37,654 nt of DNA from a virus. Its lineage: Duplodnaviria; Heunggongvirae; Uroviricota; Caudoviricetes. The notes beneath the pieces were generated by a model. It had not been told where the DNA came from. It was given only the letters and a program-made list of their open reading frames with translations, and did no database searches. The DNA lies in the IMG/VR virus record IMGVR_UViG_2529292719_000024. One strand, 5' to 3'. The position numbers were made by a program, and so were the translations under genes. Below are positions 3,011 through 32,411 of this stretch, in pieces (the first letter of the stretch is position 1; each line of letters starts with the position of its first letter).

Positions 3011-4609
3011 TCAAGCCGCCCTCACGATATAGTTAAACGCGATATTGCGGGGGCGGGTTATGTTAAAGAATGCTCCGTTTAATTCGGCTTTTGCGCGACT
3101 GTTTGTTCCACCCAGAATTGCGTACCACAAATAATCGCTACGGTAATTCCCCGCAAACACCTTATCGCCGCCATAGTCAATATTATTTCCGTTACTCATG
3201 TACGAGATATCCAGCGAAGAATCGTTATCGTCATGACCGCCGACCAGTGTACCTTTCTGCCATGAAAGCAACTTACGCCCCTCGTCAATCTTGCGCCCGT
3301 CGTCCCATCCACGGATAAACTCACCGCGTAAATCGGGAAGACGGAGGGTCGGGTAGACTCTGGCCAGAACAGGATATTGTTCTTTGGTGAACGTAGCTCC
3401 GTTGCACTGTAACCAGCCTGCTGGCGGTGTGGCGGTGGGCCACGGAACAGGCACACCAACAGGCAATGCAGAGCCTTCCCCCAAACCAAGGTAATTGAGG
3501 ACATCTTTTATACTGCCCTTAGCGATAATAGCGCGACCAATAGCTGTAAGGGTTGCCAGCGCTGCGCGGTCTGCTCCGGTAAAATAAGGCAACCGATCTG
3601 CTGCAGTGGCAAGTCCTGCCAGAGCAGTGAGCGTGGCATCTGCCGGTTGTTTTCCGTTTGCCAGATCGTATGCAGCCTTGACCGCTTTCGGTGTGGCGGC
3701 CAGTATTTCAGACGTGCTGTTGATGGCACTGCTCAATTGTATGGTGCCTTTTGCCGTCAGCGAGGCAGCAGGCACTCCCGTTATCTGACTCCACGGGTGA
3801 GTGTGGCTGACGGGCGCCTTGCCGGCTGCAAGGTCGTATGCAGCCTTGACCGCCTTCGGCGTGGCAGCCTCAGTTTCTGATTGACTGTCCGTGGCGCTGC
3901 TCAGTTGTACGGTGCCTTTTGCCGTCAGCGAGGCAGCAGGCACTCCCGTTATCTGACTCCACGGGTGAGTGTGGCTGACGGGGGCCTTGCCGGCAGCCAG
4001 GTCATATGCAGCCTTGACGGCCTTTGGTGTGGCGGCCAGCGTTTCAGAGGTGCTGTTGGTTGCACTGCTCAGTTGTACGATCCCTTTACGGGTCGTTGTT
4101 GCATCCTGGGCTGTGTATTTTCCCCGGGCCAGATCATACGCGATTTTCACAGCCTTCGGCGTGGCAGCCTCAGTTTCTGATTGACTGTCCGTGGCACTGC
4201 TCAGCTGTACGGTGCCTTTTGCCGTCAGCGAGGCAGCAGGCACTCCCGTTATCTGACTCCACGGGTGAGTGTGACTGACGGGTGCCTTGCCGGCTGCAAG
4301 GTCGTATGCAGCCTTGACGGCTTTTGGTGTGGCGGCCAGCGTTTCAGAGGTGCTGTTGGTGGCACTGCTCAGTTGGGTGAACCCCTTAGCTGTCAGTGTC
4401 GCGTCCGGGTGGTTACGGGAACGTACGTGTTCAGCCAGTGACTGTGCGGCTTCCTCCGTTTTTTTCTTCAGCCATTTCGTCCTGTTTGCCAGTTGCCGGG
4501 GGGCTCGATTTGATATCCCGTCAGCACCACCCAGAACCGGATCTGATGTCTCCAGTTGATAGATATTTTCTTCCCACTTTTCTGTTTCATTCAGGTTTCC
4601 CATAATCAA
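3011..4609 (-). CDS. tail fibre protein (Mu S / lambda Stf-like), constant shaft plus currently fused variable C-terminus
   Basis: 532 aa; repeated phage fibre motif GxxQLSSATxSxSExxAATPKAVKxAYDLA...PVSHTHPWSQITGVP; the C-terminal 147 aa lie inside the invertible segment (inverted repeat plus variable end). Confidence 0.9.
   Translation of the reverse strand: MIMGNLNETEKWEENIYQLETSDPVLGGADGISNRAPRQLANRTKWLKKKTEEAAQSLAEHVRSRNHPDATLTAKGFTQLSSATNSTSETLAATPKAVKAAYDLAAGKAPVSHTHPWSQITGVPAASLTAKGTVQLSSATDSQSETEAATPKAVKIAYDLARGKYTAQDATTTRKGIVQLSSATNSTSETLAATPKAVKAAYDLAAGKAPVSHTHPWSQITGVPAASLTAKGTVQLSSATDSQSETEAATPKAVKAAYDLAAGKAPVSHTHPWSQITGVPAASLTAKGTIQLSSAINSTSEILAATPKAVKAAYDLANGKQPADATLTALAGLATAADRLPYFTGADRAALATLTAIGRAIIAKGSIKDVLNYLGLGEGSALPVGVPVPWPTATPPAGWLQCNGATFTKEQYPVLARVYPTLRLPDLRGEFIRGWDDGRKIDEGRKLLSWQKGTLVGGHDDNDSSLDISYMSNGNNIDYGGDKVFAGNYRSDYLWYAILGGTNSRAKAELNGAFFNITRPRNIAFNYIVRAA
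3296..3460. repeat. right inverted repeat of the invertible tail-fibre segment
   Basis: Reverse complement matches 1902-2061 with 1-2 mismatches; lies inside the tail-fibre coding sequence at the constant/variable junction. Confidence 0.85.
3590..4440. repeat. three tandem ~300-bp coding repeats in the tail-fibre shaft
   Basis: Near-identical blocks at ~3590-3880, 3881-4180 and 4181-4440 (e.g. gtccgtggcgctgctcagttgtacggtgccttttgccgtcagcgaggcagcaggcactcccgttatctgactccacgggtgagtgtg); the same antisense peptide recurs in three plus-strand ORFs. Confidence 0.75.
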
Positions 4610-24628: not shown

Positions 24629-25277
24629 TTCTGTAATCCTTCCCGTTCATCCAGTAACGCGTTTATCTGGTTCCGCCAGCGACGACATTGTCCTGCGTTG
24701 TCGATGATGTTGGCGAGAACGTCACGCTGGGAGACACCCGAATCGCGTAACCGGGTGTCAGTGGTTTCAGGTTGCCCGGTCGCTGTGCCAGAGCGGGTGC
24801 CAGCGGCGGCAACTGAGTCTGAATGACCGGTGTCGACGGATGCGTTGTCATATCCGAGTGCGGCGTTGTACTGGCGCACGAAACCGCGAGTAAACACGCA
24901 CTCAATGGGATGGCTCTTACCTTTTTCATCAATCCAGCGCTGTGTGACATCGTTAATTTGCCCCTGTAGTTGTTTATTCCGGCTCTCCAGTTGAGCAATC
25001 TGCTCAAGATAACCGGCTTCAGCCCGCTGCCCGGCGGCCACCTGCTCCTGATACCGTCTGGCCCAGGCCCGCAGCGCAGCATTCTCAAGCGTTGCCTGCT
25101 CCGTTTTGTACGCGTCAAATGCTGACTGCAACTGACTGAGCGCGGTATCACCGTCACGCTTTGCAGAGTCATGACCACTTCTGTATCCCATGGCATACAG
25201 GCCGACCAGAAAGGCATTGATAAGAATGGCCAGCAGAATGCCGCGCCACGGCAGCTTTTTAATCAGATGCCACACAA
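24625..25277 (-). CDS. i-spanin (Rz-like)
   Basis: Start refined to GTG at 25277, preceded by GGAGG ~8 nt upstream; N-terminal membrane helix GILLAILINAFLVGLYAMG then a long periplasmic coiled coil. Confidence 0.55.
24663..24929 (-). CDS. o-spanin (Rz1-like lipoprotein), embedded in the i-spanin gene
   Basis: Alternative-frame ORF wholly inside the i-spanin gene, starting MKKVRAIPLSACLLAVSCASTT (signal peptide plus lipobox-like AVSC), proline-rich body. Confidence 0.45.
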   Translation of the reverse strand: MKKVRAIPLSACLLAVSCASTTPHSDMTTHPSTPVIQTQLPPLAPALAQRPGNLKPLTPGYAIRVSPSVTFSPTSSTTQDNVVAGGTR

Positions 25278-25999
25278 CTGCTGCCTCCCCATGTGAGATA
25301 TCGCGGTGCCAGTTCGCGCAGGATGCGCTGCGGATAATGGCGGTTCTCCCGCCAGCTGGCCGCATTGCGTCCGGCATTCACCGTCGCGACATGTCCGAAC
25401 CAGCGGGTGCTGTCCAGACCTTTCTGTGATGCAAGCCGCCTGTCCCGTTGTACCCAGCCCAGACCACCGTTATAGCCCGACAGTGTCATGGCCATACGCT
25501 CGCAGTCACTGGCGGCGCTGACACGCTGCCACAGCCAGCGGTCATAGCTGACCAGCGCCCGGATAGCCCATGCCGGATTAAACGGCTCACGACTGCTCAG
25601 CATCGGTATCAACTGGCTTATCCAGTCGGCAGTGGCAGGCATGAACTGCGCCAGTCCCTGAGCGCCAGCCGGCGAGATCGCATCAGGTCGCCAGCCGCTT
25701 TCCTGATGCAGTTGCGCGGCGAAATCGGCCACCGGCGCAGACAGTCCCCATTCAAGCCGGGCATTACGGATCACATCATCGCGATACTGCAGCGCAGCCT
25801 GCGGAGGTTGTGCTGCGCATGCCTGGCTGAAAAAGCCGCCACACCAGAGCAACATTGCGACAAAGAATACCCATGCCATATGAACCAGAAAGGTCCCGGC
25901 GCGGACTGACAGGCGTTCGGTTCTGATGAAGACCCGAAAGGCTTCGAAAGCCAGTTTCAGGGACATGCATACAATCCAGGTGATCTGCGGCCAGTTCAT
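25259..25999 (-). CDS. endolysin, lytic transglycosylase type (probably signal-anchor-release)
   Basis: Transglycosylase-like motif ESGWRPDAISPAGAQGLAQFMP; N-terminal hydrophobic Gly-rich segment MAWVFFVAMLLWCGGFF; true start may be internal (ATG at 25879). Confidence 0.75.
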   Translation of the reverse strand: MNWPQITWIVCMSLKLAFEAFRVFIRTERLSVRAGTFLVHMAWVFFVAMLLWCGGFFSQACAAQPPQAALQYRDDVIRNARLEWGLSAPVADFAAQLHQESGWRPDAISPAGAQGLAQFMPATADWISQLIPMLSSREPFNPAWAIRALVSYDRWLWQRVSAASDCERMAMTLSGYNGGLGWVQRDRRLASQKGLDSTRWFGHVATVNAGRNAASWRENRHYPQRILRELAPRYLTWGGSSCVASD

Positions 26000-26001
26000 G
26001 A

Positions 26002-26352
26002 TTAAAGCCCCATCGCAACAGCCAGGCAGACCGCTGCAACAATCAGTGCACGGCGGATTAACGCAGCAGAAAACACCAGGTGAAGGCCGGTCTGTACCGG
26101 GAAACGCCCTTCAGCCATCAGCCTGTCGTCATGTTTCAGGTACTGACCGGGACGGGCTTTGGGGAAGAGCGAACGGTCAAGCCAGTAACCCAGCACTGCT
26201 GCCAGCGTGATGAGTGCCAGCTTGTAGATCACAACAGGCAGCTGCTGTGGTGAGACCAGAGCGATGGTGCCCAGCAACAGCACTGAGGTCAGCAGCCAGC
26301 CGCTGAGGCGAGGTTTTTTAACAGGGGGAATGAATTTTTTCAGGTTTTTCAT
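26002..26352 (-). CDS. putative holin / small three-helix membrane protein
   Basis: Start refined to MKNLKKF (GAGGA upstream); three hydrophobic helices; directly upstream of the endolysin gene with 3 bp between. Confidence 0.4.
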   Translation of the reverse strand: MKNLKKFIPPVKKPRLSGWLLTSVLLLGTIALVSPQQLPVVIYKLALITLAAVLGYWLDRSLFPKARPGQYLKHDDRLMAEGRFPVQTGLHLVFSAALIRRALIVAAVCLAVAMGL

Positions 26353-26482
26353 GTGTGTATCCTCGTTTGGTGGAGACAGCATCACAAATACAGGGCGCAA
26401 AGGATTTTAAAGCGCGTTAAGAGAGCCGGGGATACGGGATGTGCAGGATAAACGATGAATTATTCACAGAGGAGAATACGAT
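26353..26482. promoter_or_regulatory. divergent intergenic region: candidate late-operon promoter and promoter of the P-loop gene
   Basis: 130-bp non-coding gap between divergently oriented genes; no consensus sigma-70 hexamers could be assigned confidently. Confidence 0.3.
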
Positions 26483-26959
26483 ATGACGCACACACTGAAT
26501 CCGGTCATCACTGTCACTGTGTCCGGTCCTGTGGGCAGCGGTAAAAGTTACGTACTGGCGCGGATAGAAGAGATGGTGAAACAGGAACTCGGAAACAGCG
26601 TCATTGTCGATGCTGCTGACGTGGAGAATGAGCGCCGTATGAATGGCGAAGATCTGACGACCTGGCAGAAGCCACGGGGTGGCACAGTGATCAGGCTAGA
26701 GGAATACACGGGACAGGGCCTGTTGTCATACGGCGAGGAGCGTATCTGTCGGACGAATGAGCTGCTGGATGTTATATGCCCCACGGGCCGGCAACCCTGG
26801 ATACTGCCCGATGCACTGCATGCCACCATTGCGGCACTGATGACAGTTTACGATCAGGAGCTGCTCATGAAGGAGTTACGTAAACTCACCGGTCAGCCAA
26901 CAGAATGTTGTTCGTCTCCGAAGTACGGCAAACAGGAAAACGCCCCGGATAATCCTTAA
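26483..26959 (+). CDS. small P-loop NTPase / kinase-like protein, uncharacterised
   Basis: 158 aa; Walker A motif VSGPVGSGKSYVL at residues 13-25; GAGGAG ribosome-binding site 8 nt upstream of the ATG; oriented against all neighbouring phage genes. Confidence 0.6.
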   Translation: MTHTLNPVITVTVSGPVGSGKSYVLARIEEMVKQELGNSVIVDAADVENERRMNGEDLTTWQKPRGGTVIRLEEYTGQGLLSYGEERICRTNELLDVICPTGRQPWILPDALHATIAALMTVYDQELLMKELRKLTGQPTECCSSPKYGKQENAPDNP

Positions 26960-26974
26960 GATACCTCCTGAACA

Positions 26975-27000
26975 GAAACAGCCCTGAAGGGCTGCACTAA
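26975..27000. terminator. bidirectional hairpin terminator between convergent genes
   Basis: Perfect stem-loop CAGCCC-TGAA-GGGCTG (26979-26994); on the minus-strand transcript it is followed by UUUCUGUUC; it sits between the P-loop gene stop (26959) and the minus-strand gene stop (26997). Confidence 0.5.
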
Positions 27001-27587
27001 AAAAAGAAGTGTATTATTGCCCAAACAGCTATAACGATGATTCCCAGCCCAAGAGCCGATTCTAACTTATCTTTGGCAGTCATTTTTACTGTTGTAGCGG
27101 GCGCAGGTAAGTCTTGCTGCTGTGGATTTTCTGTTAGTTGTTTACGAGAAGAAACATCGCCCCTATTAGTTTGCTTCATGTTGATTACAGATGCGTTATG
27201 GGCATTATCAGCAGCAATTGACTGAAGTTTTACAAAAGTTTTTGAATCTGTTTTAGCCAGAAGTAACCTATTTCCCGTAAACATTGCCTTAAAAGTGATA
27301 GTTTTTTTCGTCTTGTCCGCCGCACCAAGCAAACCTCCAATGACCAACCCTGCACCACCAAAGATTAATCCACCAAGCAACCCTGCGCCTGCCGCCTTAC
27401 CTATACGGCTTTCCTCTTCACTATCCGCAAGTTCAATCGATAAAAGCTCTTCTTTCAGATTTAATACAATATTTTCAGGAAAGCCTTGTTTTGGTTTTTT
27501 GGCAAACACGATGGTACCGAACCCCATGCTTGCCCACCCTTTAGGAAAACTTCCTGCGATAACCTGAATCCCTGCCATGTTCATCAC
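26997..27587 (-). CDS. glycine-zipper membrane protein, uncharacterised
   Basis: 196 aa; central glycine-zipper segment AAGAGLLGGLIFGGAGLVIGGLLGAA and C-terminal helix LGLGIIVIAVWAIIHFFF; low-GC coding sequence. Confidence 0.6.
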   Translation of the reverse strand: MMNMAGIQVIAGSFPKGWASMGFGTIVFAKKPKQGFPENIVLNLKEELLSIELADSEEESRIGKAAGAGLLGGLIFGGAGLVIGGLLGAADKTKKTITFKAMFTGNRLLLAKTDSKTFVKLQSIAADNAHNASVINMKQTNRGDVSSRKQLTENPQQQDLPAPATTVKMTAKDKLESALGLGIIVIAVWAIIHFFF

Positions 27588-27668
27588 CTTTTACATTAAA
27601 ATTTCAGAACGCAGCATGATGCCGCCTTTGTCTTTTTTCTGATCCCATGGTAATTCAGCTGTTATTTT

Positions 27669-28655
27669 CTATTTAAGAATAAAACGGTATTTACTGTCAG
27701 GAGTGCTTTGCTGATCAAGTAGCAGTGAACGACATGGAGCAGTCAAAACCCGAGCATAACTACCATCAGGGCTTATGTTAATGTAACAAACCTTGCCCTT
27801 AACACTATAATTTTCGGGGACGGATGCCTTTGCTGATACAGTAAATTTAAGGGTATGCCAGCCCGTTTTTTGCTTGTAGCTTGAAACCGAATGGAAATCA
27901 TCTGAGTACTTATTTAACCCTGGAAACATGCTGCGCAGTGCGGGGATGGAATCTTCTATTATTTTATCGTTGGTTTTAATGTTAAAAACGCTGGTTTCAG
28001 TAGAAGCTACTGCTTTGGCATTTCCCCATTTACCAGCGAACACAATCATTCCCACGAAAAATATTGCTACAAGAACTAACACTCCCCCCAACACTACTAC
28101 ATGAGGCTTCCGGCTTCTGGTTGGTACAGTTGCGACTGATTTTGCACCGCTTTCCGATGGAGGTGATAGAGTTTTACTCTCATCACGAATATTCAGCAGA
28201 TCATCAAAATAACCAAACACAGCCTGCAACTGCTCTTTGTCTAGGCCTTTAAGATGGGTTGTACCGAAATGCTTCAGACAGTATCTGTCACGGTCAAGAC
28301 GATACCCAGGGTCAGTAAGCGCCATTATTTTGCTGACCAGAAGATTACAGTCCTTCATATTCTGGATCTGTTGTGCATATCTCTGAAGGATCTCAACCGC
28401 ACCATGATAATCAGCCGCAGTCATTTCATTAACTGTTTTGGTATTAAGTTTCGTGTGGATCGTCATCCATAGCTCGCGCTTACTTTCCCCCAGATCAACC
28501 AATTCATCCATCAATCTGTGTAAATCGCGTTTTTGCAGCAACGAAATTGGTTGCTGGGCCGAAGGAAGTATGTCAGCAGAATAGTTATGAATGGTAACAT
28601 CACCGCTGACAACGTTACCCACATCCCCGTTAACTGTTTGCTTCTCTTTACTCAT
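27669..28655 (-). CDS. single-pass membrane protein with a cytoplasmic N-domain and an extracytoplasmic C-domain, uncharacterised
   Basis: 328 aa; start overlaps the repressor stop (ATGA); one transmembrane helix PHVVVLGGVLVLVAIFFVGMIVFAG; N-terminus MSKEKQTVNGDVGNVVSGDVTIHNY mirrors the repressor C-terminus. Confidence 0.65.
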   Translation of the reverse strand: MSKEKQTVNGDVGNVVSGDVTIHNYSADILPSAQQPISLLQKRDLHRLMDELVDLGESKRELWMTIHTKLNTKTVNEMTAADYHGAVEILQRYAQQIQNMKDCNLLVSKIMALTDPGYRLDRDRYCLKHFGTTHLKGLDKEQLQAVFGYFDDLLNIRDESKTLSPPSESGAKSVATVPTRSRKPHVVVLGGVLVLVAIFFVGMIVFAGKWGNAKAVASTETSVFNIKTNDKIIEDSIPALRSMFPGLNKYSDDFHSVSSYKQKTGWHTLKFTVSAKASVPENYSVKGKVCYINISPDGSYARVLTAPCRSLLLDQQSTPDSKYRFILK

Positions 28656-29113
28656 CTTCTCTTGGTATTTTTGTTCATTATTCCACCTGTTCCTATGGTT
28701 ACGTTACCTTTGATAACATTCCCCAGAACATCTCCATGAATAACCTGTTCCGCCCGTTCTCTGGAGGAGCCAGTAGTCAAGGCCGACAAAACTGAACCTT
28801 TGACCTGTAATGGTGCCTGCCGGTAGTGCTGCAGTAACTCCATTTCATCACGTGATAAAGTTATACCTGATGACTCCCCGGTAAGAATGAACTGTACATT
28901 GGCCCCAATTCTTGCAAAGGCTGCAAGTAACTCACCTCCGGGAACAGCAACCCCTCGTTCATATTTCCCCCACATTTCTCTTGAAACGCCACAAAGGGCT
29001 GCTACTTCAGCCTGCTTGAGTGATAACCGCGAACGCTCAGCTTTGAACCGCGACGCGCAAAGAGAATCAAAATTCACATAAACCTCATTGACAATGAGAA
29101 CAATAGTTCTCAT
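28652..29113 (-). CDS. prophage repressor, XRE-type HTH without a LexA-like peptidase domain
   Basis: 153 aa; HTH LKQAEVAALCGVSREMWGKYERG; divergent from the early operon across a 50-bp gap; C-terminus ends HGDVLGNVIKGNVTIGTGG. Confidence 0.8.
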   Translation of the reverse strand: MRTIVLIVNEVYVNFDSLCASRFKAERSRLSLKQAEVAALCGVSREMWGKYERGVAVPGGELLAAFARIGANVQFILTGESSGITLSRDEMELLQHYRQAPLQVKGSVLSALTTGSSRERAEQVIHGDVLGNVIKGNVTIGTGGIMNKNTKRR

Positions 29114-29123
29114 AATCTATCAC
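29088..29123 (+). promoter_or_regulatory. candidate sigma-70 early promoter overlapping the repressor start codon
   Basis: TTGACA (29088-29093), 17-bp spacer, CATAAT (29111-29116) on the plus strand, ~45 bp upstream of the first early gene. Confidence 0.45.
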
Positions 29124-29163
29124 ATATAAAACAAACATCATTGCATCAACAAAGGAGACAACA

Positions 29164-29352
29164 ATGACTTCCGAACAAGTTAAAAATCTCTTCCGTCAGC
29201 GTGGTATCACGTTTCCCCGCTGGGCCGAAGAACACGGCTACAGCCGCAATGAGGTCTATCGTGTTCTCAATGGACAGACCAAAGCTCGTTACGGCAAAGC
29301 CCATGAAATTGCCGTAAAACTGGGATTAAAACCCACGTCAAATGCGGCATAA
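29164..29352 (+). CDS. small DNA-binding regulator (Ner/Cro-like)
   Basis: 62 aa, first gene of the early operon, divergent from the repressor; HTH-like segment HGYSRNEVYRVLNGQTKARYG; AAAGGAG ribosome-binding site. Confidence 0.6.
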   Translation: MTSEQVKNLFRQRGITFPRWAEEHGYSRNEVYRVLNGQTKARYGKAHEIAVKLGLKPTSNAA

Positions 29353-29404
29353 ATTTTCCACATATGCAACAGGTTATCACATATTGCAAAAATGGAAATG
29401 TGAC

Positions 29405-29713
29405 ATGAGTAAAGTAAATATTTCCAGTTCTGGGACCCGCATCCTACGTGTACTCAAAGCTCTACGCGGTCATGCTCTGAACGGTGTTTCTAACGGTGAA
29501 CTGGCATCAGCCCTGGGGGAGTCCCCGGCGAATATCAATCGAGCACTTAATACCCTTATTGAAGAGGGACTGGCCATGAAATTAGAGAACGGACGTTTCG
29601 CACCGGGAATCCAGTTACTACAGATCGCCATGGCTCACAGTCACGAGATGGCGCGTGCACAGGATCGTATTAACGAAATCAACCAACGAGTTATTTCAGG
29701 TAGTCGTTTGTAA
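29405..29713 (+). CDS. winged-helix DNA-binding protein, hypothetical
   Basis: Start refined to MSKVNISS; helix-turn-helix-like LNGVSNGELASALGESPANINRALNTLIEEGLA. Confidence 0.45.
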   Translation: MSKVNISSSGTRILRVLKALRGHALNGVSNGELASALGESPANINRALNTLIEEGLAMKLENGRFAPGIQLLQIAMAHSHEMARAQDRINEINQRVISGSRL

Positions 29714-30641: not shown

Positions 30642-32411
30642 ATGAATGCTGCCCTGACTGAACGACTGGTTTATGTCGCCCGCGCGGCACGTGACGCGGG
30701 GCATGGTAAACGCGGTGCAATATACGACGCTGCCTGTGCTGAACTTGGCATGTCCCGCGCCACTCTGCTGCGCAGGCTGAAGGAGGTCTCTGTGACTGAT
30801 AAACGCAAAAAACGCGCTGATGCCGGACGCAGCGCCCTGACCCGCGACGAAGCCGCGCTGATATCTGCCACACTGCGTGAGGCCACCCGCAAGAACGGTA
30901 AACGCCTCTATTCCATCGCAGATGCAGTGGAAACCCTGCGGGCTAACGGCTTTATCACCGCAGGCAGAACAGATGAAACCACCGGTGAGTTTTTCCCGTT
31001 GTCTGAAGATGCCATCAGCCGTGCTCTGCGTAACTATGGCCTGCACCCGGAACAACTGGATGCTCCTGCACCGCATACCGAAGTGGCCAGTCTGCACCCC
31101 AATCATGTCTGGCAGATTGACGCCTCACTCTGCACGCTTTACTACCTGAGCAATGGACATAAAGGGCTGCAGGTGATGGACAGCGCGAAGTTCTACAAGA
31201 ACAAGCCCGCTAACCTTGCCCGTATCGCCAGTGACCGCGTGTGGAGTTACGAGATTACCGACCATGCCAGCGGCTGGATTTACGTTGAGTATGTGACGGG
31301 CGCGGAATCAGGTGAGAACCTGTGTTCTGTGCTTATCAACGCCATGCAGGAGCGTGGCGGCGCAGACGTGCTGCACGGCGTGCCAAAAATACTCTATCTC
31401 GACCCCGGCTCGGCAAACACCGCGGGTATGACGAAAAACATGTGCCGCTCACTGGGCATCGACCTGATAGCGCACAAGCCGCATAACGCCCGCGCCACCG
31501 GACAGGTGGAAAAGGCGCGGGACATTATCGAACGCAAGCTGGAGCCGGGTCTGAAGTTCCGGCCGGTTCACAGTCTGGAAGAACTCAATGCGCTGGCCGC
31601 GAAATGGCGCAGCCACTTTAACGCCACGGCTGTTCACAGCCGCCACGGTAAAACCCGCACGGATATCTGGCTGAAGATTACTGCTGAGCAGCTGAAAAAA
31701 GCGCCTTCCGTTGAGGTATGTCGTGAACTGGCTGTGGCGGCACCAGAACTCCGCAAAGTCACGCCAAAACTTCGTGTCTCGTTCCGGGGCACTGAATTTG
31801 ACGTATCAACGGTACCGGGCGTACTGGTCGGTGAAAAACTGATGATTACCCGTAACCCGTGGCGCAGCGATGTGGCACAGGTGGTTCTGACCGGTGAGGA
31901 CGGCCACGAGACGTTCTTCCTGGTCGAAGAAGTCAGAAAGAACGAGTTTGGCTTTGCTGAAGGCGCGGCGGTATTTGGCGAAAGTTACAAAGCCCTGCCG
32001 GAAACCCCGGCGCAGATGGCGGCAAAAGAAACCGAAGCGCTGGTCACCGGTACAGACAACGCCGCAGATGCAGCTGCCGCACGCAAGGCGAAGGCGCTGC
32101 CGTTCGGCGGGCGGCTTGACCCATATAAACATATTGATGACGCCACACTTCCGGCCTATATGCCGAAGCGAGGTCAGGCCTCTGACGTACGCGGGCCGCG
32201 CACTGAACAACGTCCCATGACTCATGTGGAGGCCGCGAAAGCCCTGCGCGATAAGTTCAGCGCCGACGGCCTTACCTGGACGCCGGAACATTACCGCCAG
32301 TTAACGGCACAGTATCCGGACGGCGTACCGGAAGCCGCACTGGATGAAGTCATGGCCACGCTGACCACGCCGGCCCGCAGCAGCGTTATCAGCATTGTTA
32401 ACGGCAACTGA
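30642..32411 (+). CDS. Mu-type DDE transposase (A protein)
   Basis: 589 aa; RNase-H-like core with candidate catalytic acidic residues (HVWQIDASLCTLYY, LYLDPGSANTAGM); followed by a B-like ATPase as in transposable phages. Confidence 0.8.
   Translation: MNAALTERLVYVARAARDAGHGKRGAIYDAACAELGMSRATLLRRLKEVSVTDKRKKRADAGRSALTRDEAALISATLREATRKNGKRLYSIADAVETLRANGFITAGRTDETTGEFFPLSEDAISRALRNYGLHPEQLDAPAPHTEVASLHPNHVWQIDASLCTLYYLSNGHKGLQVMDSAKFYKNKPANLARIASDRVWSYEITDHASGWIYVEYVTGAESGENLCSVLINAMQERGGADVLHGVPKILYLDPGSANTAGMTKNMCRSLGIDLIAHKPHNARATGQVEKARDIIERKLEPGLKFRPVHSLEELNALAAKWRSHFNATAVHSRHGKTRTDIWLKITAEQLKKAPSVEVCRELAVAAPELRKVTPKLRVSFRGTEFDVSTVPGVLVGEKLMITRNPWRSDVAQVVLTGEDGHETFFLVEEVRKNEFGFAEGAAVFGESYKALPETPAQMAAKETEALVTGTDNAADAAAARKAKALPFGGRLDPYKHIDDATLPAYMPKRGQASDVRGPRTEQRPMTHVEAAKALRDKFSADGLTWTPEHYRQLTAQYPDGVPEAALDEVMATLTTPARSSVISIVNGN

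Follow-up and report, generated by a model that had tools for sequence, protein, structure and literature searches.

Known systems compared with the Rep–MemA pair

Lambda carries lysogen-expressed genes that are co-transcribed downstream of its repressor (cI-rexA-rexB), one of them encoding a membrane protein. Here we analyzed the repressor region in a stretch of 37,654 nucleotides of viral DNA (IMG/VR record IMGVR_UViG_2529292719_000024, Caudoviricetes), hereafter called the window, which corresponds to a nearly complete transposable E. coli prophage of the BcepMu-like type (Bcepmuvirus). Its immunity repressor gene, rep, is followed on the same strand by genes for two membrane proteins, MemA and MemB. 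The C-terminus of Rep (the tail) and the N-terminus of MemA (the head) carry a matching peptide motif, and we consider it moderately probable that together Rep and MemA form one immunity repressor, split into two halves and tethered to the membrane. The locus resembles that of lambda in having genes downstream of the repressor, one of which codes for a membrane protein. However, there is no homology (PADLOC negative), and to our knowledge Rex proteins neither have a motif in common with CI nor occur fused to repressors in relatives.

A fused repressor is encoded by Pseudomonas phage Gregale. It contains the same Rep-family helix-turn-helix (HTH) and a C-terminal domain homologous to the cytoplasmic domain of MemA and its relatives (Mem proteins), and its gene occupies the same place. 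Unlike the pair in the window it is one soluble polypeptide with a single linker, without tail–head pair, membrane anchor or periplasmic domain. The known kind of protein is a CI-like repressor composed of an HTH and a C-terminal domain; what is new here is the split, membrane-tethered form linked by matched peptides. Within the Bcepmuvirus group, gp17 of the type phage BcepMu is named the lysogenic repressor in the KS10 paper (PMC2628397), and the passages searched there make no mention of gp18. Rep occupies the position of BcepMu gp17 and is 38% identical to phiE255 gp46.

Short homotypic motifs that terminate one protein and recur at the start of an adjacently encoded one, with cognate pairs being more alike, are also found in bacterial amyloid signalling sequences (BASS) of Bell proteins and nucleotide-binding oligomerization domain-like receptors (NLRs) as well as in HET-s/NWD2. 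BASS are motifs of about 25 aa enriched in Q, N, G, V and I and depleted of K, P and L (Dyrka et al. 2020). In the window the motif lies at aa 120–144 of Rep and aa 3–25 of MemA, a placement that corresponds to BASS and recurs in at least 10 sequence classes. The tail–head motifs also have the BASS composition: N (3.6x), G (2.4x), Q (1.8x), V (1.7x) and I (1.2x) are enriched, L (0.12x), P (0.27x) and K (0.77x) are depleted.

One reading of this likeness is that tail and head are self-templating cross-beta motifs. Clustered MemA would then nucleate an assembly that captures and inactivates Rep, and the lysogen would flip irreversibly to lytic growth. The BASS-like architecture, in which a motif of roughly 20–25 aa ends one protein and opens the product of the neighboring gene, fits this reading, as does the composition (rich in N, G, Q and V, poor in L and P), and similarity that is homotypic rather than complementary would suit in-register stacking. 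Several heads contain two to four rung-like repeats (BcepMu gp18, phiE255 gp47 and the loci L074 and L064), and the head of MemA has no confident structure in a monomer model. However, the partners in the window are an XRE-type HTH repressor and a membrane protein resembling Flk_N, not an NLR (NB-ARC/NACHT plus repeats) and a pore-forming effector (Bell). In addition, the window motif lacks the G-phi-Q-phi-G core, and the hosts here are Proteobacteria and their phages, whereas BASS are reported to be rare or absent in Proteobacteria. We regard this reading as rather unlikely, and the connector variants described below also speak against it. If true, it would provide the first amyloid-signalling switch in a bacterial virus and in Proteobacteria, and an SOS-independent, envelope-triggered induction pathway with built-in immunity-class specificity.

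A homologue of the cytoplasmic domain of MemA is furthermore found in Flk (also called Fluke or RflH), which in Salmonella and E. coli locks flagellar type III secretion. This lock acts on the export gate of the flagellum and is anchored by its C-terminal tail, with the N-terminus inside (PMC13344023). Flk differs from MemA in being chromosomal and acting at that gate; it has neither head motif nor partner repressor, and the periplasmic domain is a feature of MemA. Anti-repressors and Rha/KilA-N proteins with an ORF6C-type C-terminal domain are comparable insofar as the family formed by Mem proteins and repressor C-terminal domains matches ORF6C and anti-repressor PHROGs. However, these proteins are soluble, the ORF6C and PHROG matches are weak and none of them is direct with MemA of the window; we know of no matched terminal motifs in this group.

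Extracytoplasmic function sigma/anti-sigma factor pairs and ToxR/CadC-type regulators hold a DNA-binding regulator at the inner membrane via a single-pass protein whose periplasmic part is receptive to signals. The window pair is alike in outline, but there is no homology, and here a matched peptide pair and a phage immunity repressor are involved. In the literature searched on amyloid signalling (including BASS), BcepMu repressors, Flk, anti-repressors, prion-like repressors, glycine zippers and ORF6C we found no description of the Rep–MemA pairing.

Tail and head motif in the window

The features of the pair are as follows (TM, transmembrane; AF2, AlphaFold2; pLDDT, predicted local distance difference test score):

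28652..29113, minus strand: Rep, XRE-type HTH immunity repressor, 153 aa as longest open reading frame (ORF)
28682..28756, minus strand: C-terminal tail motif of Rep, RAEQVIHGDVLGNVIKGNVTIGTGG, the tail half of the connector, followed by the basic end IMNKNTKRR
28652..28655, minus strand: ATGA stop/start overlap of rep and memA (translational coupling)
27669..28655, minus strand: MemA, N-in single-pass inner-membrane protein, 328 aa, phrog_10002
28581..28643, minus strand: N-terminal head motif of MemA, KQTVNGDVGNVVSGDVTIHNY, the head half of the connector
28176..28568, minus strand: cytoplasmic helical domain of MemA, aa 30–160, Flk_N/ORF6C-like, AF2 pLDDT >90
28032..28100, minus strand: TM helix of MemA, aa 186–208 by hydropathy, AF2 helix 190–205
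27672..27992, minus strand: periplasmic alpha/beta domain of MemA, aa 222–328, AF2 pLDDT >90

When the tail RAEQVIHGDVLGNVIKGNVTI of Rep (aa 120–140) was aligned with the MemA head KEKQTVNGDV-GNVVSGDVTI (aa 3–22), 11 of 21 positions were identical and 17 of 21 positive, with a pairwise BLASTP E-value of 3e-4. We scored all 2,550 ordered tail–head combinations of the 51 ORFs in the window, and the adjacent pair Rep–MemA reached the maximum with a score of 55 (mean 18.5, sd 4.0). A six-frame scan of the window gave no third copy of the motif, the next-best matches scoring at most 35 in comparison to 54 for the Rep–MemA cross-match. A preliminary description of this DNA had called the two peptides near-identical and attributed the motif to a pair of membrane proteins. 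The shared motif itself is clearly present; with 11 of 21 identical positions near-identity is an overstatement, and the partners are in fact the repressor and one membrane protein. The same description held that the underlying DNA is not similar, and this is borne out by codon usage: only 4 of the 11 identical residues in the window use the same codon, and across tail–head pairs the same-codon fraction at shared residues is 0.43 versus 0.36 expected. On these grounds we rejected a recent duplication or gene conversion.

In homologues of MemA from Serratia, Yersinia, Morganella and Salmonella, each of which follows an overlapping HTH gene, the head is almost invariant down to 44% overall identity. 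The AF2 monomer model of MemA, based on an alignment of 22 sequences, is without confident structure in this part (aa 1–29, pLDDT about 44). Tail-bearing Reps of all classes terminate in a Lys/Arg-rich end (KNTKRR, KKNK, ENKK, KRKR; 28655–28681 in the window), and the coupled downstream gene has its ribosome-binding site in the purine-rich codons of this end.

Apart from the tail, Pfam detected only the HTH_31/HTH_3 domain in Rep (aa 22–68). An S24 peptidase domain with the Ser-Lys dyad of the self-cleaving LexA/lambda-CI type was not found by Pfam in the 153-aa Rep, in line with the earlier statement that the repressor lacks a LexA-like peptidase domain. Comparison with NCBIfam yielded weak matches to HTH families and nothing more, and Rep matches PHROG repressor/regulator families. 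The true start of Rep is probably the GTG at 29077, giving a protein of 141 aa. This start is more plausible since a palindrome overlaps the annotated ATG (29113) and the homologues are also 141 aa long.

The gene arrangement agreed with the preliminary description both in the ATGA overlap of rep and memA and in the single TM segment of the 328-aa protein. The same 4-nt overlap is present in the loci L003, L005 and L007, in phiE255, in BcepMu and in several other loci. A basic stretch, TRSRKPH, precedes the TM helix on the cytoplasmic side. Residues 19–147 of MemA match the NCBIfam model for Flk, PRK10715 (E=2.9e-12); with 46.6 bits against a cut-off of 353 for the Flk equivalog this points to a shared domain and not to an orthologue. 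Precomputed matches to PF27202 (Flk_N), flagged as weak, are available for the MemA homologues P0001, P0017 and P0022. MemA, MemB and the separate lipoprotein described below gave no match in our Pfam copy, which does not contain PF27202 and PF27000.

An exhaustive HMMER search with MemA returned 211 clusters at 50% identity. Judged from their N- and C-terminal sequences, most of these proteins are 190–225 aa long and carry the head motif and a C-terminal TM segment. The search also returned Flk-like proteins of 330–440 aa without head motif (P0114, P0123, P0137, P0143, P0146–P0184). The N-terminal domain of Flk is thus common to C-terminal domains of phage repressors and to repressor partners (ORF6C-like), and the chromosomal flagellar regulator may be a domesticated phage regulatory module. 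The clusters P0067 and P0016 are recorded as truncated proteins of 153 aa (53 member sequences) and 208 aa, lacking the TM and/or the periplasmic part; they may reflect recurrent inactivation or assembly breaks.

Covariation, distribution and a fused form

We next compared tails and heads across 80 viral loci, obtained by a search of viral contigs with a Rep alignment, together with phiE255, BcepMu and two Burkholderia genomes. At least 10 sequence classes can be distinguished among the tails of Rep and the heads encoded by the ORF that follows, and in each class the tail matches its own partner. The motif reads GDVxGNV in the window class, QIFNGDISGQF in class 2 and NRVAGRDY in the P2-like class. 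Four classes serve as examples:

tail SQIFNGDISGQFAGNQIINNG, head RQEFNGTAQGQFSSRDIINIH
tail VNVSGNGNRVAGRDYNEKK, head VNSSGDQNRTAGRDFTEN
tail KQIFNGNIDGQVSAENIYNIG, head EQHFNHTVGQVAANNIYNIY
tail AQAFHGPVGGGVAGRDIVNKG, head KQEFQAAVEGGVAGRDITNE

In a permutation test with one representative of each of 13 classes the cognate pairs reached a score sum of 608, compared to 403 ± 32 for permuted partners (z=6.3), a value that was not attained in any of 200,000 permutations. As independent divergence after an old duplication would give no such excess of cognate over non-cognate similarity, tail and head have evolved in concert. The same tail–head pattern is present in gp46/gp47 of phiE255, in gp17/gp18 of the type phage BcepMu and in the P2-like Escherichia phage 520873. 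The pairs of phiE255 and 520873 were reached through tblastn searches of deposited phages with the N-terminal part of MemA and the C-terminal part of Rep, which returned few hits. A natural swap is provided by two chromosomal loci of Burkholderia, L093 and L094, which were the only two hits of a profile scan of genome contigs: their Mem bodies are alike, yet each head fits the tail of its own Rep.

Tail and partner also occur together. For three tail-bearing Reps without an initially called partner (L043, L050, L073) and for phage 520873 (L009) we found a head-bearing ORF downstream. The partner gene is frameshifted in phage 520873 (2784–3396) and in L073 (at about 933), L043 has tandem rep genes ahead of the partner, and in L050 an insertion of about 650 nt separates rep from it. 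Conversely, the commonest Bcepmu prophage of E. coli (ABU 83972, ST131; about 475 genomes) has a homologous Rep without tail and no Mem gene. At this locus (L095, Rep at 3292–3750) the slot of the partner holds a Dam methylase and small ORFs.

Among the Rep homologues of the window class the tail is invariant and the C-terminal half conserved, while the HTH half is exchanged. The C-terminal half of Rep thus stays linked to MemA when the DNA-binding half is replaced.

These data bear on the possibility that Rep and MemA make no direct contact, both motifs being read by some other factor, be it a protease, chaperone or targeting factor of the host or a further phage protein, or that the motifs are a functionless relic of a duplication. 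Short terminal peptides rich in G, N and V can be degrons, and the stability of the Mu repressor is controlled by ClpXP via the repressor's C-terminus. However, with a conserved host factor the motif should stay fixed, whereas it has split into specificity classes inside a single host range. A functionless relic would be expected to decay, without any higher score of cognate over non-cognate pairs. Bcepmu-like and P2-like phages both carry the pair, yet they have no early genes in common, nor any other phage gene besides the pair, so that a third factor conserved among the phages is unlikely. With the fused form presented in the following pointing to direct association, we consider an explanation of this kind most unlikely.

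The two proteins correspond to the two parts of a single one. Rep of the window matches positions 10–88 of phrog_17822, and the soluble Mem protein of L077 matches positions 120–266 of the same family, so that Rep represents the N-terminal and Mem the C-terminal part of one protein. The counterpart of this family is a 267-aa protein of the Casadabanvirus Gregale, a Pseudomonas phage, termed ‘CI-like repressor’; it was matched over its full length, and its gene is divergent from a Ner-like gene and a transposase. Alignment of the Mem family profile (A4, columns 31–152) with residues 126–260 of the Gregale repressor by hhalign gave a probability of 86.7% and E=4.4e-6. In pairwise comparison with the fused protein, clear similarity covers the HTH half of the L077 Rep and the L077 Mem from about residue 28 onwards. 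Where the split form has the tail–head pair, the fused protein has a single linker rich in G, N and V. We found the fused form in 19 viral contigs. Since 17 of the 19 are just 43–44% identical to Gregale and match it over nearly the full length, the fusion is no sequencing artefact. The C-terminal domain of Gregale reaches the cut-off for Pfam ORF6C (E=1e-5), and related members among Mem proteins and repressor C-terminal domains match ORF6C and three PHROGs annotated as anti-repressor.

The connector itself is replaceable. In an alternative class (L052, L059, L065 and L098, the latter being Ralstonia phage RS138, 468–1821) a helical C-terminus of Rep is combined with a helical leader of Mem, which suggests that the association as such is selected and not a particular connector. 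Reps of this class end in ...VLKLVVNR or ...ERILRLVA, and the partner's leader DERLAKLA..L is followed by a beta segment rich in G, N and V; further members are P0086, P0103, P0104, P0113 and P0135. For the amyloid reading introduced above the consequence is unfavorable: as a covalent linker or an alpha-helical connector can take the place of the beta pair, a plain stoichiometric connector suffices.

The head in turn is found on several body types, namely a Flk_N-like domain with tail anchor, the same with an additional periplasmic domain, a zinc ribbon with two TM segments, a short body with two TM segments and a soluble form, and is therefore best described as a portable adaptor. Most Mem proteins are plain tail-anchored proteins without periplasmic part, and those of L074 and L077 have no TM segment at all. 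A Burkholderia-type subfamily (L093, L094, L008 with gp47, L096 with gp18, and P0181–P0224) combines the head with half of a Flk_N-like domain, a coiled coil, a TM segment and a small periplasmic domain of the pattern C..GK.Y..GS..D....C; rung-like G/N/V repeats, two to four in number, are found in its heads.

The periplasmic domain of MemA (aa 222–328) contains a PGLNKY motif and two Cys that align with Cys of a lipoprotein encoded in L006/L007. Homologues of this domain are encoded by a separate gene for a lipoprotein or periplasmic protein directly after Mem in L007, L022/23, L028, L067, L034/35, L087, L064, L078 and L088; fused to Mem they occur in the window class and in L024. The domain accompanies different Mem body types and motif classes, but many loci lack it, among them all those of the P2-like type. 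Searches of solved structures and of viral model structures with the periplasmic domain of MemA gave no match.

Proposed function, prophage setting and MemB

We propose that Rep supplies the DNA-binding HTH and that MemA supplies in trans the Flk_N/ORF6C-like regulatory domain which in Gregale-type repressors forms the C-terminal domain. By means of the ATGA overlap both halves would be made together. They would be joined non-covalently in the cytoplasm, the G/N/Q/V-rich tail of Rep pairing with the matching head of MemA as a cognate homotypic beta connector; such physical binding is suggested by the covariation of tail and head, the joint presence or absence of tail and partner, the fused form and the interchangeability of connectors. 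With MemA anchored N-in in the inner membrane, the repressor complex would be held at the membrane and its integrity could be governed from the envelope, with the periplasmic domain, a lipoprotein in other phages, as an optional input. An envelope or periplasmic cue would alter the state of MemA, Rep would be withheld or released from productive binding at the early-promoter operator, and the outcome would be a non-SOS route of induction. Rep has no S24 domain, so that induction must take another route. Our choice of direction and cue is a guess: we assume that the cue leads to loss of Rep binding and so to induction, given the lack of an SOS-cleavable domain in Rep and the apparent ability of tail-less relatives to repress alone.

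A membrane sensor that competes with or sequesters the repressor had been suggested in the preliminary description. The coupling of repressor and membrane protein is supported by covariation, co-presence and co-absence, fusion and the separable lipoprotein; the idea of a sequestering competitor is not, as the fusion indicates two halves of one repressor instead.

Several points weigh against a split repressor. Tail-less homologues of Rep presumably repress alone, and together with the frameshifted Mem genes this means that MemA is dispensable for repression as such. The link between MemA of the window and the fused repressor runs via the family profile and the intermediate L077-type subfamily, not via pairwise similarity, and the ORF6C cut-off is reached by the Gregale repressor only, window MemA having no match in the local Pfam library. 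Binding is proposed for a head that lacks a confident structure in the AF2 monomer model. The homotypic similarity could in part be a relic of gene splitting, and the basic C-terminal end of Rep may be an RNA-level constraint imposed by the memA ribosome-binding site. Finally, the proposal of an envelope cue is a guess, as the periplasmic domain is unlike anything known.

Defence genes expressed in the lysogen, lambda rexAB for example, are located beside the repressor. MemA could accordingly act in repressor-guarded abortive infection or superinfection exclusion, as a membrane effector or injection blocker that is unleashed upon loss of Rep; the tail of Rep would hold MemA inactive or report the repressor status. 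The position next to the repressor and the low-GC, moron-like cassette (see below) are in favor of this, and a membrane anchor with periplasmic domain is compatible with blocking DNA entry. However, PADLOC-DB 2.0 gave a best E-value of 0.014 for MemA, without a passing stretch, and no match for MemB, so that the earlier remark that neither membrane protein belongs to a recognized defence family holds. In addition, the conserved part of MemA is a soluble, regulatory-type domain (repressor C-terminal domain, anti-repressor PHROGs, Flk) and no pore former, some members lack a TM segment (L074, L077) and most lack the periplasmic part. In our judgement a guarded defence is unlikely.

Induction is poorly understood for many temperate phages without a RecA-sensitive repressor peptidase, the Mu-like and P2-like carriers of the pair among them. 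If Rep and MemA form a split repressor, prophages would have a means of monitoring the envelope, each immunity type with a private link of its own in the form of a short, matched pair of peptides. The specificity classes, at least 10 in number, would then constitute natural orthogonal peptide connectors for engineering, and Flk, the flagellar regulator, would be linked in evolution to the ORF6C-like domains of phage repressors and anti-repressors. The type phage BcepMu has the module as well.

Within the prophage, the genes and sites around the pair are arranged as follows:

25259-25999, minus strand: soluble lytic transglycosylase (SLT) endolysin, late gene, with head and tail genes beyond
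26002-26400, minus strand: holin, late gene
26978..26995, minus strand: hairpin resembling an intrinsic terminator, GCAGCCCTTCAGGGCTGT, then the T-rich run TTCTGTT, closing the leftward operon
26997..27587, minus strand: MemB, glycine-zipper protein, 196 aa (193 aa in RefSeq), phrog_12025
27000-27059, minus strand: C-terminal TM segment of MemB
27318-27401, minus strand: glycine zipper of MemB, GxxxG run at aa 63–90
29088..29116, plus strand: early promoter-like site TTGACA-17-CATAAT
29096-29111: perfect palindrome GAGAAC-AATA-GTTCTC (GAGAACAATAGTTCTC), between the -35 TTGACA and the -10 CATAAT of the early promoter-like site
29164-29352, plus strand: Ner-like gene, early gene
following the Ner-like gene, plus strand: IclR-type winged HTH and DUF3102, early genes
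30642-32411, plus strand: DDE transposase, early gene

The palindrome at 29096–29111 is likely a candidate operator of Rep, a function suggested by its sequence and position. When 5,426 complete E. coli genomes were compared, 97 of them, IAI39 and CE10 among these, contained the region 26400–29400 (3 kb) with at least 99% identity, and about 500 further E. coli genomes contain the same phage backbone with other immunity cassettes. The immunity cassette as a whole (26500–29700, from MemB via MemA and Rep to the beginning of the early operon) has a GC content of 41–45% in comparison to 55–59% in the rest of the prophage, which indicates a horizontally exchanged module.

The preliminary description had furthermore placed a 196-aa glycine-zipper membrane protein behind MemA and a hairpin terminator at the end of the unit. 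Both are present, the former with its GxxxG run and C-terminal TM segment, the latter with its T-rich run at 26995–26978. As a second reading it had proposed that MemA senses and MemB executes a two-component exclusion or abortive infection. The two genes are co-oriented, 81 nt apart and followed by one terminator, and glycine zippers can form membrane lesions. However, the MemB family is narrow (12 matches) and not co-conserved with Rep–MemA: MemB is missing after MemA in Serratia (L003), L005 has other, unrelated ORFs in its place and L006/L007 the gene for the periplasmic lipoprotein, and in Citrobacter MemB is located behind a Phage_CI_repr repressor without MemA. For this lack of co-conservation, and with PADLOC being negative, we rejected a MemA–MemB two-component system, which we consider extremely improbable. 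Judged from its distribution MemB is an independent moron in the same operon, putatively lysogen-expressed and outside the Rep–MemA unit. Its AF2 model has no usable fold (pLDDT 34.5), and some homologues have a precomputed match to PF27000 (PH_gly_zipper), flagged as weak.

At the other side of the terminator lies a P-loop ORF (26483–26959, plus strand; ‘ABC transporter ATPase’, phrog_3787), which has 158 aa in the window in comparison to 242 aa in phage PhiKM. As the DNA similarity between the window and PhiKM stops at about 26947, this ORF has been truncated by the junction of the immunity cassette.

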